Source of the DNA: Escherichia phage vB_EcoS_FFH_1 | Sequence record: KJ190157 | Reading direction: 5' to 3' (one strand) | DNA length: 64,000 nucleotides | In this document: piece by piece, positions 3,530-12,225 of the stretch | Position numbering within the stretch: the stretch's first letter is position 1 | How the letters are laid out: every line of letters starts with the position of its first letter | Notes under the pieces: generated by a model | Seen by the model: only the letters and a program-made list of their open reading frames with translations | The model's database searches: none | What the model was told of the DNA's origin: nothing | Position numbers and translations under genes: made by a program

Positions 3530-3607
3530 TGGTGGCTCCCCGAGGATTCGAACCTACGTACCTTCCGGTTATGAGCCGGGTGCTCATACCATATGAGCTT
3601 GAGAACC
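3530..3607 (-). tRNA. tRNA with anticodon CAT (Met, fMet or Ile2 type); weak T-stem
   Basis: Anticodon loop CTCATAA, D-arm GCTC...GAGC, acceptor GGTTCTC/GGGAGCC with G-U pairs, CCA encoded. Confidence 0.55.
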
Positions 3608-6254: not shown

Positions 6255-7202
6255 TTATTTATTACGCATATCCATGATCATTTGACCATCGTAGCCAGTA
6301 CCTACCACAGTCTGTGGTACACCACCTTGATATTTCTGAGCACGAATCATTTCGACTTCCAGTTGTTTCCAACGAATCATCTCAGGAGTAATGGTACGTT
6401 GCAGTGCGGCGTTAGCTTCAGCTTCTTTCTTAGCTGCGTACAGTTTAGCATCTGCGTCACGTTCATTAGCGATAGCTTGGTTGTTGCGAGCTTCACGATC
6501 TGCTTCTGCTTGTTTAACTTTTTGCTGTGCTTCCTGTTCAACACGAGCTAATTCAGCTTTAGCAGCATTAACCTGTTCTTCACGAACTTTGGTATTCTGT
6601 ACCTGTTCCATGATTACCGGTGGCAAAGTAATATCCTGAAGGAATACCTGCTTAACTGTGTAACCATATGGGCGTGCATACTCTTCAACTTCCTGTTGAA
6701 TTGCAGTTTGCAATTGAGCCTGAATTTTAGCATCAAACAAATCTTGTGCTTTAGGTACAGACTTACCAAACTCACGAATAGTAGACAGTAATTTTTCAGT
6801 TACATATTTGTCTAACGCTTGATCCTGAGTACCTGCGTTAATACGGTTAATTGGTGCCTTAGAACCATCAAACTGCAACATAACAGTCAGGTCAACAGTG
6901 GATTTAAACTTATCCTGGCTAGGAACCTGAAGTTTATCTAATTTTACAGCAATATCTTTTGTACTAAAAGTGTCGAAAGATGCAAATGGGTTTACAAGAT
7001 GGAAACCTGGTAATACTGGGTTAGGATCTACTTTACCCAGAAATGTTTGGGTTTTAACCGTACCATCAGAAACAATAGTATATGAATTAAAGGCTAGAAT
7101 CAAGCCTGCTAAACCAACTACAGCACCAATACCCCAACGTTTAATAGTACGAATTACTTTCTGCTCAGAAGTCAGTTCTTTCATATTTTTAGTATTAAAC
7201 AT
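6255..7202 (-). CDS. SPFH/band-7 (prohibitin/HflK-HflC-like) membrane protein
   Basis: N-terminal transmembrane helix, SPFH-like core, long coiled-coil A/E/Q/K-rich C-terminus; RBS AAGGAA. Confidence 0.65.
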   Translation of the reverse strand: MFNTKNMKELTSEQKVIRTIKRWGIGAVVGLAGLILAFNSYTIVSDGTVKTQTFLGKVDPNPVLPGFHLVNPFASFDTFSTKDIAVKLDKLQVPSQDKFKSTVDLTVMLQFDGSKAPINRINAGTQDQALDKYVTEKLLSTIREFGKSVPKAQDLFDAKIQAQLQTAIQQEVEEYARPYGYTVKQVFLQDITLPPVIMEQVQNTKVREEQVNAAKAELARVEQEAQQKVKQAEADREARNNQAIANERDADAKLYAAKKEAEANAALQRTITPEMIRWKQLEVEMIRAQKYQGGVPQTVVGTGYDGQMIMDMRNK

Positions 7203-7311: not shown

Positions 7312-7812
7312 TTTAAATATTTTTAAGAACTCTCGTAAAAACTCTTAAAAATACAGACGATACCGGGAGAGTCATAAGTCTCACTCATTAAGTATTTCAA
7401 GACAAAATACAGTAACGTCTATTATTTTCCAGTTTAAGTCAGGGTGACTTAGTGGTTATGTCCTGCGGTATATTGAGGACTCGGTTAGGCTTGGGGTCAT
7501 GACTTCCCGCCTTTTGCTGCTACTCAACAGGAGTTATCGCGAATTACCTGTGCTATTGTGCACCATTAGTGACATCTCTCATGTCAGCATTTCCCACTTT
7601 GTGGATAGCTTGAAAAACTACTCCGATATGGAGAAAAACTTCACTATCCTAGAATACCTTCTAAAGTTCTTCTTTAGCCTGGACATAGTTAAAGCGTAAT
7701 AAAACTATTCAGCAGACTGGTTGGTTAGTCTGGAACCAACTACCGCGTGGTTTAGGCAGTGCGCAACTAACCTCGGAAGCTTTTACGTTAAAAGCATCAG
7801 TTATCCAGTTCT

Positions 7813-7884
7813 TACCGACCGTAGGATTCGAACCTACATCTTCCACCAGTTACGGCTTGATAATACCAATTATACTAGGACGGC
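7813..7884 (-). tRNA. tRNA-like element or pseudo-tRNA; anticodon stem does not pair
   Basis: Good T-arm GTAGG-TTCGAAT-CCTAC and a 6 of 7 acceptor stem; no CCA encoded. Confidence 0.3.
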
Positions 7885-8122
7885 AGTGTTACTACATAAG
7901 TGATTTCCACACCCCACTATTTATAAATTAGAGAAGAGTTTAGGGGAGAGGTTTCAGACGCCTCATTTTACACGTTCTAGCCACTAACCGGGATTGCCGC
8001 CCCCTGTGTACTAGTTTTACAACTAACCCACCGACTCTATTCAACGAATCTTAGTGCTCGACGCATCTTACATTAAGACAAGTTCAGCGTAATCGGCTCG
8101 CTGTTCTCTAATTTATGAATAT

Positions 8123-8151
8123 ATTATACAGAATTTATAAGCATTTAGCAA
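8123..8151 (-). promoter_or_regulatory. Conserved early promoter (TTGCTA-17-TATAAT)
   Basis: Plus attata 8123-8128 and tagcaa 8146-8151. Confidence 0.6.
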
Positions 8152-8159
8152 ATAAATTT

Positions 8160-8603
8160 TTAATTAAATTCGCCAGCAATCTGAGCAGCAGTACCACCAT
8201 CGTAACGCCCAGGAAATTCTTCCTTAATCGCTTTCATCAGCATACCTTTTGTAATTCCAGGGTTTAGCTTAACTAATTCTGCAAAGTATTTACGAATCTC
8301 AGTATCAGATAACTGAGGAGGCAGATACTCCTGCAACCACTTATTTAGAATGTATTCATACTGAGCGGACTGCAAGCTATAACTATCAAGATCTTGACCA
8401 TGAAGTTTAGCTTTCATCTGGTTAATGCTTTTTAGTTGAGCTTTGAGATAAGACACAAATTGTTCAGAAGTGATGAAATCTTTATCAATACGCTGAAGAT
8501 CCCCGATTATGGTCTGATAGCTTTTAGCGACTTCTTTATCAGAACCATTAAACTTAGAATCCTGCAAAGCTCTACGCAAAACATCTAAAATATTCTCTTC
8601 CAT
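8160..8603 (-). CDS. GatB/YqeY-domain protein
   Basis: YLPPQLSDTEI and the C-terminal GITKGMLMKAIKEEFPGRYDGG pattern resemble the YqeY family as recalled from memory. Confidence 0.55.
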   Translation of the reverse strand: MEENILDVLRRALQDSKFNGSDKEVAKSYQTIIGDLQRIDKDFITSEQFVSYLKAQLKSINQMKAKLHGQDLDSYSLQSAQYEYILNKWLQEYLPPQLSDTEIRKYFAELVKLNPGITKGMLMKAIKEEFPGRYDGGTAAQIAGEFN

Positions 8604-8773
8604 TATTTCATTCCTAACGCTTGGTTAAAAGATTGTTCTGTCATAACTGCTGAGACTTTGGCGAAATCAAACTTTTTAGGGTTCGTAGTGATTTCAGCAA
8701 CGTTAGAAGTTTTAACAGTTTTCGTAGTACGAATACCGCGAGTGTTAACACCAATAATTACAACTGATTTCAT
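8603..8773 (-). CDS. Hypothetical small protein (56 aa), translationally coupled to the next gene
   Basis: Hand translation MKSVVIIGVNTRG...; RBS GAGAGGAAG; stop overlaps the next ATG (TAATG). Confidence 0.4.
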   Translation of the reverse strand: MKSVVIIGVNTRGIRTTKTVKTSNVAEITTNPKKFDFAKVSAVMTEQSFNQALGMK

Positions 8774-8804
8774 ATTTCGCTTCCTCTCATTAATTTATGG
8801 AAGT

Positions 8805-8833
8805 ATTATACGGAAATTTAAGTATTTAAGCAA
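8805..8833 (-). promoter_or_regulatory. Conserved early promoter
   Basis: Minus strand TTGCTT-17-TATAAT. Confidence 0.6.
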
Positions 8834-8841
8834 GTAAATTT

Positions 8842-9291
8842 TTAAGTTTTAGTGACAACAGGTTTATAAAACGTATGTCCCTTAATCTTAGTTGTTTTCT
8901 TAAACTTCTTTGTCCAGTAAGGTTTATCTTTACCACTATGGAAGTATAGTGCTCCATATGTAGGATCTTGTGGTAAATCAACGTAGTATATCACTCTAGC
9001 TAAATTCTTAGCGGTTTGCCAAGCCTCATCAGTTTTATCAACTTTTGGTCTCTTAGATACCCAAGAGAACTGGTTAGACTGATATACTACTTTACAGTAG
9101 GAATCTGGGAATTTACCGGAGTTTACACGGTTCTTAGTAACATGTGCAATCGCCGTCATTCCCTTTATGCCCTCACCACGACTTTCGAAATAGATATTTT
9201 TAGCAATGCAATCTATTTCTTTTGCATCGTGCGATGCCTGACTACTAAAGCTGAAGGTAAGGGCAGCTACTAAAAGCAAAGCTGCCTTCAT
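8842..9291 (-). CDS. Secreted cell-wall hydrolase, SleB/Hydrolase_2 family
   Basis: Signal peptide MKAALLLVAALTFSFSSQA and the IYFESRGE motif; start taken at the ATG preceded by AGGAG. Confidence 0.6.
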   Translation of the reverse strand: MKAALLLVAALTFSFSSQASHDAKEIDCIAKNIYFESRGEGIKGMTAIAHVTKNRVNSGKFPDSYCKVVYQSNQFSWVSKRPKVDKTDEAWQTAKNLARVIYYVDLPQDPTYGALYFHSGKDKPYWTKKFKKTTKIKGHTFYKPVVTKT

Positions 9292-9296
9292 TCTTT

Positions 9297-9614
9297 TTAC
9301 TCCTGCCAATCATATTCAACACGATTGGGATTTTCTTTATACCCTAAGTCAAGCAAATCATTACGCATAGTTTGCTTAGCTACGGGATTCGAGGTTACTA
9401 GTACCACTTTCTTTGGTCTCTGCCCAAACTCTAAGAGTAAACGAAGAATTTGATAACCTTCCATACCATCTACAGCCAAGTCATTATCCATATAAACGAA
9501 GTGGCCTGTGGTATCAGTTTTATTCAGAAACTTTACAGCGGCTTCTGGGGTTCGAATGATAATGTCCATTCCGTGAAGATTACGCACATCATCAATCAAA
9601 ATATGAAAAGTCAT
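9297..9614 (-). CDS. Small alpha/beta protein with a CheY-like receiver pattern (tentative)
   Basis: HILIDDV (acidic pair), FVYMDNDL, VVLVTSNP spacing resembles a REC domain; could instead be another Rossmann-like fold. Confidence 0.35.
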   Translation of the reverse strand: MTFHILIDDVRNLHGMDIIIRTPEAAVKFLNKTDTTGHFVYMDNDLAVDGMEGYQILRLLLEFGQRPKKVVLVTSNPVAKQTMRNDLLDLGYKENPNRVEYDWQE

Positions 9615-9644
9615 AATAGCCTCGTTTCATCAATTTAAAAATAT

Positions 9645-9673
9645 ATTATACATATAATGTAGTAGATTAGCAA
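9645..9673 (-). promoter_or_regulatory. Conserved early promoter
   Basis: Minus strand TTGCTA-17-TATAAT. Confidence 0.6.
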
Positions 9674-10056
9674 ATACATTTTTAAATTGTGAAACTAGTA
9701 AACCGATAAACAGCCTAGAGGCGCCACAGGCCATATCTTATGAGCCATGTACCTTTGATCTAGGGTTTGAATCATCAACGAATACTTTGCATCTTTTAGC
9801 TTTAGAAGTTTAGAAGTTTGAGTTCTTTAAACTTTTCAGCTTTCATACTTAAATGTTGATCTTTGAAGTTGTGTCGATAATATCAACGACGCTTTGTTCT
9901 TACGTGTCAGCTTAAAAGGCTGGTGTAATAAACATAATCTCCAATAGATTATACTTTATAGTATGGTCAGCGGTCTTATTTAACCTCGTATTTCAACCGC
10001 TGCTGCGAGGTAAGATGCTTGGGCTTTCGTCTACCGATTTACTAGCTTTTAAATTA

Positions 10057-10695
10057 TTACTCTACTTCAATGAGGGTAGAGGCGTTAGACTCGGACAGAA
10101 CAAAGTCAACATTTGTTGCAAAGTCCTGGTATTCCTCGTCATGCTGCTTAATCAGCTTCTCCAGTTCCAGCGGATCAATCAAGAATGGAGTATTCTTGAG
10201 TTCCAGCAGGTTGAGCTGCATTTTAACTTCATCTTCGGAAGTTTTCTTATCGCGGGTAGCCATACTATCCTGCAAACGCTCATATTTAGCATCAAACTGT
10301 GCTTTCTGCGTATTAAACTTAACCGTAGCGGCATGGAACTGCTTACGCATGTTAGCCAGCAATTGGGCTTTAAGTTCCATAGAACGCTTAGCTTCAATTG
10401 CTTCCGCAACAGTCATCTTACGAGAGCCAATCTCAACGATTGTTTCCGCATTGCTTTTAATCAGAGCAGCTTTGATACGATCACGCTGGGACATCATATC
10501 CAGCAGAGACTGGAAATCAGTCTTAATACGAGTAGACAGATCAGCTACTTCGATTGCAGCGCCAACTACAACCTGGTTTTTATCCTTACCTTCACCAACA
10601 GCGATCAGAAGCTGTTGTTCAGTAGCTTTACGGATTTTAGCTTCCAGAGATTTGATAGTTGCCAGAGCGCGAGTTTTAGAGATACGAGTAGTCAT
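10057..10695 (-). CDS. Hypothetical alpha-helical protein (212 aa)
   Basis: RBS AAGGAAG; same orientation as the operon; overlapping plus-strand ORFs judged spurious. Confidence 0.5.
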   Translation of the reverse strand: MTTRISKTRALATIKSLEAKIRKATEQQLLIAVGEGKDKNQVVVGAAIEVADLSTRIKTDFQSLLDMMSQRDRIKAALIKSNAETIVEIGSRKMTVAEAIEAKRSMELKAQLLANMRKQFHAATVKFNTQKAQFDAKYERLQDSMATRDKKTSEDEVKMQLNLLELKNTPFLIDPLELEKLIKQHDEEYQDFATNVDFVLSESNASTLIEVE

Positions 10696-10748
10696 TATTT
10701 GCTTCCTTATATGAAGTTTGAGATTTGAATTTGTTTAAATTTGGTCTA

Positions 10749-10931
10749 TTACAGACCAATTGCCAGCAGAGTGCGCAGAACAGTATCGTTACTGTTATCA
10801 ATTTTAGGATTAGCACGATTTAGCAGATCAAAGATTTTCTGGATACCTGATTGACGTTCAGCCATACGACGGATACCCAGATTACGAGTAGCTTTCTTAC
10901 CATTTTTACGAACATTTTTAGATACTGGCAT
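10749..10931 (-). CDS. Small basic protein (60 aa)
   Basis: RBS AAGAGGAAAA. Confidence 0.4.
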   Translation of the reverse strand: MPVSKNVRKNGKKATRNLGIRRMAERQSGIQKIFDLLNRANPKIDNSNDTVLRTLLAIGL

Positions 10932-11001: not shown

Positions 11002-11703
11002 TCAAATTTTCATTTTTTCGATCATAGCTGCAACACAATAGCTTTCAACTAAGGCATCAAATGCAGGATCATGCTTAACCGGATAGATCCCATAACGAAT
11101 AGTGTCCATCTTCTCCATTTTAGCTATTGCCCAGCTAATACCTTCGGTCTCTAGAGCCTTATAACTGTATCCAGCTTGCATCCAGAGATTACGAAGAGAT
11201 CGAACATTGCCCAAATTCCAGAATTTCCACGGAACTACCTCTTCATTGGTTCCAGCATGGAACGTATTTGCAGAGTAGATAGTCATATCAAACTCTGGGC
11301 CATTGCCATAGTACAAAGCATTGTCGCCTAGAGCCAATTCCATAATATTTTGAGCCATAGAGAAGGCAGCATAGTTAGAGCCAAGTTTATTAGTGCAATG
11401 ATGTTTACCATTTTGGAAGGCAATCAGTTTTGGATTACGTTCCTTCATAGCTTCCATAATGTGGATAGCAGACGGGCTATTTTTAGCTTGATCCATCCAG
11501 AATGCTAGAGTAGATGCTGTAACTTTAGCACCAGAATTAAACTGATCTTGCACATCCAAAGTAACAAATACTAGATCAGGGTCTTTATCAATTCCATGCA
11601 TAGCCACAAAAGCGAAAGAAGGCATTGCGATATGAGTAGTACCACAATCTCCTGGAGTTCCTAGAGATTCAATATCTAGCATACCAAATGGTTTTACTTT
11701 CAT
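11002..11703 (-). CDS. DEDDh-family 3'-5' exonuclease (DnaQ-like fold)
   Basis: Exo I-like MLDIESLG and Exo III-like H-x4-D (HDPAFDA); RBS AAGGA. Confidence 0.55.
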   Translation of the reverse strand: MKVKPFGMLDIESLGTPGDCGTTHIAMPSFAFVAMHGIDKDPDLVFVTLDVQDQFNSGAKVTASTLAFWMDQAKNSPSAIHIMEAMKERNPKLIAFQNGKHHCTNKLGSNYAAFSMAQNIMELALGDNALYYGNGPEFDMTIYSANTFHAGTNEEVVPWKFWNLGNVRSLRNLWMQAGYSYKALETEGISWAIAKMEKMDTIRYGIYPVKHDPAFDALVESYCVAAMIEKMKI

Positions 11704-12009: not shown

Positions 12010-12225
12010 TCACTTGCCCAGCAGTTTAAGGATATTTTCCATAATAGTTTGGGCAGACTTTTCACTCTTGTTAGTTTCAGCCAACTTTAAAGCGAGTTCT
12101 TCCTGCTGTTTCTGAATATCAGCTGCGATTTTTTGATCAGCCTCAATACGAGCTTGAAGCTCATCAGTGATAGTGGTAAAGGAAGCAACGATTTCAGTAA
12201 CAGAACGTGGTTTCTTAGAGAACAT
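12010..12225 (-). CDS. Hypothetical protein (71 aa)
   Basis: ORF with RBS AAGGA. Confidence 0.4.
   Translation of the reverse strand: MFSKKPRSVTEIVASFTTITDELQARIEADQKIAADIQKQQEELALKLAETNKSEKSAQTIMENILKLLGK

Follow-up and report, generated by a model that had tools for sequence, protein, structure and literature searches.

What was already known about these two kinds of protein?

The closest described relatives of the two genes discussed here sit in the classical phage T5, where T5.083 (NC_005859, 42290-42739) carries the RefSeq label ‘endolysin’ and T5.084 (NC_005859, 42745-43062) is called ‘hypothetical protein, similar to KVP40.0304’. Both genes are present in the T5 annotation of 2005, both families have been described and annotated previously, and in that sense the pair is already known and quite ordinary. 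A genome paper from 2012 listed a ‘cell wall hydrolase SleB’ among the early genes of a T5-like phage, and current records name both proteins by the same domain labels that we find here, the hydrolase as ‘cell wall hydrolase’. Literature searches, including those on PF20274 and on the name cREC, turned up no experimental work on T5.083, on T5.084 or on any cREC protein.

For the hydrolase, the reference enzyme is Bacillus subtilis SleB, whose catalytic groove contains E203, R222, Y278 and H301 (PMC13556211; we took the catalytic residues from this paper and from PMC12331253), and whose family prefers a peptide-free muramic-lactam substrate (PMC13556211). A 2024 survey of T5-like Salmonella phages found M15C peptidases adjoining the holin and SleB-domain proteins far from it, and left open which of the two is the main lysin (PMC11180984). 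The other protein belongs to a family that was named cREC by Iyer et al. of the Aravind group in 2021-22, who reported that it never accompanies histidine kinases, that its genomic links are with RNA ligases and NAD/ADPr-processing genes, and that as many as 18% of jumbo phages have it (PMC7824862, PMC9503650), a frequency that goes against the expectation of the initial annotation of this DNA that such a domain would be unusual in a lytic phage. The same authors predicted that cREC proteins open 2',3'-cyclic or 1''-2''-cyclic phosphates, and thus act as phosphoesterases on cyclic-phosphate or ADP-ribose derivatives (PMC7824862, PMC9503650). The cREC papers term the active site metal-independent, and the 2022 paper calls the family experimentally uncharacterised.

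Where do the genes lie, and how are they transcribed?

The window, by which we mean the whole 64,000-nucleotide stretch of Escherichia phage vB_EcoS_FFH_1 (KJ190157) that was analysed, comes from a T5-like phage of the family Demerecviridae. It holds ten tRNA genes (ARAGORN) at a G+C content of about 39%, and over 8000-10800 it shares 98-99% identity with Tequintavirus genomes (NBEco001, phiLLS and others), with 445 phage records matching that region. Both open reading frames are on the minus strand, exactly where the initial annotation had placed them (Table 1), and they are the orthologues of T5.083 and T5.084. There is no difference of substance from T5: the two phages agree in gene order, strand and flanking promoters, the cREC proteins share 96% identity, and nucleotide identity is 94% for the cREC gene and 96% for the hydrolase gene, although the window is closer to NBEco001 and phiLLS (99%) than to T5 itself. 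The neighbours of the hydrolase gene are cREC, a DUF7616 gene and a YqeY-like gene, while the cREC gene borders the tRNA cluster, with the YqeY-like protein and an Rv2179c-like 3'-5' exoribonuclease encoded nearby. Family membership, fold, conserved residues, operon layout and synteny are what we establish for this pair of genes.

Table 1. Features of the cREC-hydrolase transcription unit, in the direction of transcription
Feature	Position	Strand	Remarks
Early-type sigma-70 promoter, TTGCTA-17 nt-TATAAT	9645..9673	-	10/12 matches in promoter scan; drives the two-gene unit
cREC gene, 105 aa, T5.084 orthologue	9297..9614	-	Receiver fold (model); invariant D8, D9, R11, R21, D43, D45, T74 (always T or S), N76
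Shine-Dalgarno AGGAG for hydrolase	9300..9304	-	Within the last cREC codons, 8 nt ahead of the ATG; read from sequence
Hydrolase open reading frame, 149 aa	8842..9291	-	
Hydrolase codons 1-19, predicted Sec signal peptide MKAALLLVAALTFSFSSQA	9235..9291	-	Predicted cleavage before S20; from hydrophobicity and the -3/-1 rule
Mature Hydrolase_2 (SleB/CwlJ-type) domain with stop codon, T5.083 orthologue	8842..9234	-	E36, R55, Y116, H139, C28, C66
Next early promoter, TTGCTT-17 nt-TATAAT	8805..8833	-	Read from sequence; serves the DUF7616 and YqeY-like genes; 3' limit of the unit

The ATG at 9291 is the most likely start of the hydrolase. The ORF finder had proposed TTG 9309, an unlikely start because the AGGAG at 9304-9300 precedes the ATG, and the GenBank records of T5, NBEco001 and SIA3lw all have a coding sequence of 450 nt. 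A sequence scan found no terminator-like site between the cREC and hydrolase genes, which therefore form a two-gene early transcription unit. Both promoters have counterparts in the T5 record, which annotates one at the equivalent place upstream of T5.084 and another, P-D/E 33, between T5.083 and T5.082, corresponding to our 8805-8833.

Upstream of this unit, the intergenic stretch 9690-10056 (370 nt, from the upstream gene to the cREC promoter) caught our attention in its own right. It is about 95% identical in Epseptimavirus-like genomes, in which the flanking genes are 85-90% identical, and as a minus-strand RNA it folds with a z-score of -4.97, against -2.07 for the other strand. A stem of some 20 bp closes the predicted RNA, and in one hairpin a CG pair is replaced by AU, a compensatory change; Rfam has no match in this interval. 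Judged by its conservation and folding, it looks like a functional non-coding element.

What kind of enzyme is the hydrolase?

The assignment of the 149-residue protein to the SleB type, as made in the initial annotation, is fully borne out. The protein scores 88.9 bits against Pfam Hydrolase_2 (PF07486; cutoff 27) over profile positions 1-100 of 100, it also matches PHROG endolysin families, and phmmer aligns it with the SleB catalytic domains 4f55/4fet at 3.6e-8, placing E36 against the first Glu of the SleB GESRGE motif. Its AlphaFold (AF2) model has a pLDDT of 90.8, and the only significant PDB matches that Foldseek returned with this model were SleB structures (4f55 and 4fet; probability 1.0, TM 0.62-0.79). 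Four residues, E36, R55, Y116 and H139, correspond to SleB E203, R222, Y278 and H301 with identical +19 and +23 spacings, and among 25 homologues E36, R55 and H139 are invariant and Y116 nearly so. The initial annotation had named loss of the catalytic glutamate as the result that would speak against a SleB-family enzyme; E36 is kept, and no such objection arises because this residue, together with R55, Y116 and H139, matches the SleB groove. By homology, the protein is predicted to be a lytic transglycosylase acting on peptidoglycan, and the mature enzyme would cut glycan strands via Glu36.

Membership of the family does not make the protein SleB itself. It consists of a single Hydrolase_2 domain, and against the SleB equivalog model TIGR02869 it reaches 50.4 bits, over profile positions 79-201 only, where the cutoff is 236.5. 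We therefore rejected it as a SleB equivalog, on account of a score far below the cutoff and the missing N-terminal peptidoglycan-binding domain.

The N-terminus reads MK, then AALLLVAALTFSF, a 13-residue hydrophobic core with a mean Kyte-Doolittle value of 2.36, then SQA|S, and in a rule-based check the S-Q-A|S site obeys the -3/-1 rule, so that the n-region, hydrophobic core and cleavage site of the signal peptide proposed earlier are all present. Divergent homologues (25 aligned) likewise have a hydrophobic N-terminus followed by a small-x-A motif. The segment might instead serve as an anchor that is not cleaved, or as a SAR-type domain. Its short core of 13 residues and the SQA|S site make a cleaved signal likelier than a SAR anchor, as far as such features allow a prediction. 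The 149-residue precursor would thus be exported by Sec and probably cleaved after Ala19, yielding a basic periplasmic enzyme of about 15 kDa that amounts to the SleB/CwlJ catalytic domain only. Given a fold of the SleB/CwlJ type, a catalytic Glu and an export signal, a periplasmic muralytic factor, as the initial annotation suggested, is the natural prediction. The same annotation considered a signal peptide unusual for an endolysin, and here we differ: signal peptides are predicted in 27.9% of Gram-negative phage lysins, in which Hydrolase_2 is among the dominant catalytic domains (PMC8223927), and an N-terminal hydrophobic segment is found in every aligned Hydrolase_2 phage protein.

C28 and C66 are the only two cysteines of the hydrolase, they are invariant across the 25 homologues, and the aligned positions of Bacillus SleB hold Leu and Ser. 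A periplasmic C28-C66 disulfide may therefore be envisaged from this pattern, within the T5-like clade only, because phage FV3 keeps C28 and has Arg at position 66. This same phage breaks the rule that homologues have both cysteines or neither, which we had considered and have dropped.

Is the hydrolase the endolysin of the phage?

The hydrolase is not the main endolysin, since no holin/spanin cassette surrounds its gene. In NBEco001, which is 99% identical here, the interval 18.5-21.9 kb contains the genes for the holin (gp044), the endolysin (gp043) and the Rz-like spanin (gp047), and the hydrolase gene lies at 39.3 kb, so that the lysis cassette is some 20 kb from the hydrolase gene, and its counterpart falls outside the window. 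In our preferred account, the hydrolase would be an accessory muralytic enzyme, working beside a main cassette (holin, L-Ala-D-Glu peptidase and spanin) encoded elsewhere in the genome.

An exported SleB-type enzyme is a recurrent and recognised phage feature. Proteins with a Hydrolase_2 domain are found in 1,272 phage records; among rV5-like and PVP-SE1-like phages the enzyme is again a second lysin, located in a replication or regulatory module; and phages are also the source of the nearest relatives beyond Demerecviridae (41-48% identity), of which three were examined and two lie among nucleotide-metabolism genes. The arrangement is different in Escherichia phage Mangalitsa (Chaseviridae), where a Hydrolase_2 protein with an N-terminal hydrophobic segment is encoded directly after the holin/antiholin gene. 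This last case, the frequency of Hydrolase_2 among the lysin catalytic domains of Gram-negative phages, the RefSeq name of T5.083, and the presence of homologues of at least 60% identity in about 519 phage records (those listed being T5-like, so that the gene is probably near-core there) all lend something to the idea that the hydrolase is a Sec-dependent, holin-independent endolysin that contributes materially to lysis, as a second pathway resembling the secreted and SAR endolysins that wait for membrane depolarisation. We nevertheless consider this unlikely, in view of the remoteness of the holin/endolysin/spanin cassette, the position of the hydrolase gene between T5 early-region promoters, the dedicated M15 endolysin that T5-like phages already possess, and the early or nucleotide-metabolism modules, as opposed to lysis cassettes, in which the closest relatives outside Demerecviridae reside.

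Early expression raises a problem of its own. An active, free periplasmic transglycosylase made from an early promoter would carry a risk of premature lysis, and some restraint must exist. An early and non-lytic periplasmic role might also be entertained, be it murein remodelling, the trimming of peptide-poor strands, superinfection exclusion or a pre-conditioning of the sacculus for the L-Ala-D-Glu peptidase. The early-region position and promoters are consistent with such a role, as is the fact that unrelated large virulent phages repeatedly carry signal-bearing Hydrolase_2 genes in an early or replication module, and the liking of the SleB family for peptide-free muramic-lactam hints at denuded or trimmed strands. 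However, nothing in the sequence tells such a role apart from that of a plain accessory lysin, and no inhibitor or partner gene was identified, so we would give it only a small chance of being correct and retain the accessory lysin as our working model.

Is the neighbouring protein a response regulator?

The 105-residue protein is receiver-like, as the initial annotation proposed. It matches the Pfam family cREC_REC (PF20274) at 54.5 bits (cutoff 27), as do 16 of 16 close relatives, and it models as a receiver fold, with structural neighbours among viral models that are annotated as cREC proteins of other phages. The family is large: a cREC profile search of 1.84 billion representatives returned 428 clusters, and a profile built from 101 sequences returned 1,637 clusters at 90% identity, almost all of them standalone proteins of about 100 residues. 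Across 140 family representatives sharing less than 50% identity, D8, D9, R11, R21, D43, D45, G53, P67 and N76 are invariant or nearly so, with D8, D9 and D43 strictly invariant and position 74 always T or S, so the CheY-like pattern (DD, then D, then T/S) that had been noticed in the single protein is real and kept across these representatives.

In the model, D8 and D9 come after strand 1, D43 after strand 3 and T74 after strand 4, which puts these residues at the topological positions of CheY D12, D13, D57 and T87. The question of whether the putative phosphoacceptor Asp aligns with CheY D57 accordingly receives a divided answer: D43 occupies the same place in the modelled fold, an equivalence of strand-end topology and not a residue-level superposition, and a comparison of the cREC alignment with E. 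coli CheY by hhalign yielded nothing usable (probability 2.4%). Other comparisons with known receivers were similarly unproductive. A search of PDB sequences with cREC gave spurious repeat-protein matches only, and the window protein has no match to Pfam Response_reg (PF00072) at E <= 10, the best result among its 16 relatives being a single one at E = 0.064. There is no conserved Lys at the position of CheY K109 (cREC residues 91-98 in the 140 representatives), and helices 1 and 5 are absent from the model, in which strands 1 and 2 are not separated by a helix and the last strand is not followed by one.

Could the protein then be a phosphoacceptor switch, that is, a CheY-like single-domain response regulator controlling the hydrolase or another phage or host target? 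The receiver fold, the DD/D/T residues at their canonical positions, and the tight linkage and probable co-transcription with the hydrolase gene in most Markadamsvirinae are what such a proposal would build on. Against it stand the failure to match Response_reg or to align meaningfully with CheY in a profile comparison, the unconserved K109-position Lys and the missing helices, and the extra invariant residues R11, R21, D45 and N76, which resemble a substrate-binding or catalytic site. Moreover, the family reportedly never accompanies histidine kinases, and we saw none near cREC in any neighbourhood examined; direct contact is implausible between a hydrolase predicted to be periplasmic and a cREC protein that has no signal peptide; and the two genes also occur apart. 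We regard a switch as highly improbable, and the phosphoacceptor-type domain of the initial annotation does not survive these comparisons.

What might cREC do?

Our preferred reading is that the 105-residue protein is a cytoplasmic cREC enzyme of receiver fold, with a Mg/phosphate-binding acidic pocket made up of D8, D9, D43 and T74 and supplemented by the invariant R11, R21, D45 and N76. In line with the published prediction for the family, a cyclic-phosphate phosphoesterase activity is predicted, and the enzyme would most likely hydrolyse a phosphoester of a cyclic-phosphate or ADP-ribose-derived substrate, such as 2',3'-cyclic RNA ends, ADPr>P or immune signals of the cADPR type, in the service of tRNA repair or of counter-defence. 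Like the export and cleavage of the hydrolase, the enzymatic activities of both proteins, their substrates and their biological roles are things that we infer.

The DxD active site of HAD phosphatases resembles that of CheY. Relative to CheY, cREC has an invariant Asp two residues past the phospho-site position, and by analogy the D43-x-D45 arrangement recalls the HAD motif, which leads us to suggest, as our own addition to the published prediction, a Mg-dependent mechanism with an aspartyl-phosphate intermediate and the Asp at +2 as general acid. It is conceivable, if hardly probable, that cREC works in just this manner, with D43 as nucleophile and D45 as general acid, to destroy NAD-derived immune signals or the cyclic phosphates formed from them, Thoeris cADPR isomers and ADPr>P being examples. 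A divergent T5-like contig (L006) is of some relevance here, in that it has the gene order Sequestin, cREC, Sequestin, Hydrolase_2, with both Sequestin ORFs above the Pfam threshold and a DUF4326 gene 1.6 kb downstream. Sequestin has been shown experimentally to be a 3'cADPR sponge that blocks type I Thoeris (bioRxiv 10.1101/2025.07.12.664507), and DUF4326 proteins have been proposed to process ribose-linked phosphates on ADPr products. This single locus, the only one examined that has ADPr-related cREC neighbours, points slightly to a counter-signalling role for cREC; the neighbours in the window are tRNA and RNA-related genes only. If the HAD-like reading were true, the T5.085-T5.083 interval would be an anti-signalling hotspot, at which Sequestin sponges and a DUF4326 phosphatase have been acquired by some T5-like phages, and the classical, genetically tractable phage T5 would for the first time open to experiment a so far uncharacterised family of some 1,600 protein clusters.

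The genomic setting in the window also invites a narrower proposal, in which cREC is specific to tRNA repair and opens the 2',3'-cyclic phosphate ends that phage or host tRNAs bear after cleavage by host anticodon nucleases, small-molecule immune signals not being its substrates. Such a specialisation falls within the original prediction, which drew on operon links to RNA ligases. It would also suit a gene at the edge of a tRNA cluster, close to a YqeY-like protein and an Rv2179c-like exoribonuclease, and the cREC gene of Vibrio phage phi-ST2 is near DUF2828/DUF7788 and RNaseH-like genes. However, an RNA ligase or polynucleotide kinase beside cREC was seen in no locus examined, and in L006 it is 3'cADPR sponges that flank the gene. 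An exclusive role in tRNA repair thus strikes us as doubtful, and we prefer to keep the broader prediction of a cyclic-phosphate or ADP-ribose-derivative phosphoesterase.

Do the two genes work together?

The order cREC, Hydrolase_2, DUF7616, YqeY-like is kept down to 62-69% cREC identity in Markadamsvirinae and in metagenomic T5-like contigs related to them, and in the T5-like contigs with a cREC in this range the gap from cREC to the hydrolase is 5-12 nt. Selection for co-expression of the two genes may have played some part in this. The partnership is not a fixed one. In phage falkor an HNH homing endonuclease ORF is inserted between the two genes; Pectobacterium phage My1 has both, five genes apart; and in Klebsiella phage IME260 (Sugarlandvirus) no cREC gene adjoins that of the hydrolase. 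The converse is seen in Vibrio phage phi-ST2 and in four unrelated phage contigs, where no Hydrolase_2 gene lies near cREC, and the three contigs encoding the closest non-Demerecviridae hydrolases have no cREC nearby. Among the loci examined, adjacency is seen within Demerecviridae only; the related-locus search of viral contigs covered close T5-like genomes, other cREC lineages being reached by profile search.

We conclude that the adjacency is inherited synteny and not a functional module. A cREC-hydrolase module was considered and rejected on two grounds, namely that the genes occur apart and that their products are predicted to reside in different cell compartments, and the neighbourhood of hydrolase and receiver that the initial annotation pointed out carries no demonstrated functional significance. 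Transcription is shared because the genes are neighbours and not because they form a system. All in all, we think it probable, if some way from certain, that the two early accessory genes of this T5-like phage are unrelated and are co-transcribed as neighbours from one strong sigma-70 promoter, with the hydrolase and cREC performing the roles proposed above.

The value of this locus as a discovery is small. Its practical value lies in the fact that both proteins belong to a model phage and are conserved in some 400-500 sequenced relatives, and two questions are raised that are well worth asking, the first being why the early region of many large virulent phages encodes a second, exported muralytic enzyme of the SleB type, and the second being which substrate the cREC pocket hydrolyses.

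How does this locus compare with known systems?

With the Bacillus enzymes SleB and CwlJ, the phage hydrolase shares its fold, the catalytic Glu and the groove Arg, Tyr and His, and it is single-domain like CwlJ. From SleB it differs in having an identity of only about 30%, in having neither the N-terminal peptidoglycan-binding domain nor a YpeB partner, and in a cysteine pair that is specific to its clade. The setting is also different, in that the host of the phage has no muramic-delta-lactam, and activity on host murein is not guaranteed. With signal-peptide and SAR endolysins, such as the Hydrolase_2 lysin of Mangalitsa, the hydrolase has in common an N-terminal hydrophobic export segment and a small muralytic domain, but it lies in the early region, away from any holin or spanin gene, in a phage that has a separate canonical endolysin.

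Set against receivers of the CheY type (Response_reg), the window cREC shows no sequence similarity that could be detected, lacks a K109 equivalent as well as helices 1 and 5, and has no kinase partner. Compared with the cREC family as described by Iyer et al. (2021, 2022), the window locus has no Nudix fusion and no adjacent RNA ligase, sirtuin or 2H gene, and its cell-wall hydrolase neighbour is an association absent from the non-Demerecviridae cREC loci examined. In other respects the window protein fits PF20274 well: its score exceeds the gathering threshold, it stands alone with a length of about 100 residues, and the conserved Asp residues, a phage origin and an early-gene setting agree with the family.

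Features of the early region

The features considered here, some in the phage vB_EcoS_FFH_1 window and others in related loci, belong to the early region that holds the gene for cREC, the 105 aa receiver-like protein.

Positions of the features in the window and in compared loci
Feature	Location	Strand	Context
SPFH/Band 7 protein gene, T5.080-like	window 6255-7202	minus	same early region as cREC and the SleB/CwlJ-type hydrolase
gene-free stretch, ~800 nt	window 7312-8120	minus	downstream of the 8151-8123 promoter, adjoins tRNA-Arg
non-coding element	window 9690-10056	minus	flanked by the T5.085-like gene and the cREC promoter
early-region genes with doubtful database names	window 10057-10695, 11002-11703, 12010-12225	minus	
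divergent cREC allele with HNH homing endonucleases	L005 2395-3847		Salmonella phage falkor
Sequestin-cREC-Sequestin and DUF4326 gene	L006 4763-7435		metagenomic T5-like contig, SRR11036332

Among Epseptimavirus-like loci, the non-coding element is about 95% identical, as against 85-90% for the flanking genes, and its RNA is far more stable than shuffled sequences on the transcribed strand (z -4.97; z -2.07 on the other strand). The folded structure has a closing stem of about 20 bp as well as one hairpin with a compensatory pair. A search of Rfam gave no match to the element, and the T5 annotation carries no feature at the equivalent position. Within it lies a TATAAT (at about 9953-9948), which is followed by GGAG and then by a mini-ORF of seven codons with its ATG at about 9935.

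The T5 region that corresponds to the gene-free stretch of about 800 nt carries the label ‘RNAX, stable RNA with unknown functions’. Inside the window's stretch Rfam finds a weak tRNA-like element (7813-7884, 35.5 bits) that ARAGORN does not call, and a second Rfam tRNA, at 3533-3607, was likewise missed by ARAGORN.

The SPFH/Band 7 protein, annotated as a ‘lipoprotein’, has a hydrophobic segment at its N-terminus and is predicted to be another early protein directed to the envelope. Database names elsewhere in the early region include ‘tail fiber protein’ for a 212 aa protein, ‘metallopeptidase’ for the Rv2179c-like exonuclease, ‘tail length tape-measure protein’ for a 71 aa protein, and either ‘tRNA amidotransferase’ or ‘recombination related exonuclease’ for the YqeY-like protein; such names look like propagated errors.

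Variation at the cREC locus

The falkor counterpart of the element carries a homing-endonuclease insertion at its 3' end. HNH homing endonucleases also flank the divergent cREC allele of this phage, which shows 55% amino-acid identity, compared with a DNA identity of about 88-90% for the adjoining genes. Since the cREC matches in JLBYU43 and Kenya-K38 are annotated ‘HNH endonuclease’, and cREC forms the C-terminus of a 273 aa protein (P0111), a fused or merged ORF is likely. Taken with the falkor arrangement, this suggests that homing endonucleases have driven allele replacement at the cREC locus.

In the metagenomic contig the detectable part of the element shrinks to about 70 nt, and a gene for Sequestin (PF21825), a sponge for 3'cADPR, lies in the equivalent intergenic interval. 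The cREC gene there has a Sequestin gene on each side (n=2), with a DUF4326 gene just downstream, which suggests that the cREC interval serves some T5-like phages as an anti-signalling hotspot; another compared locus (L007) has DUF4326 as well.
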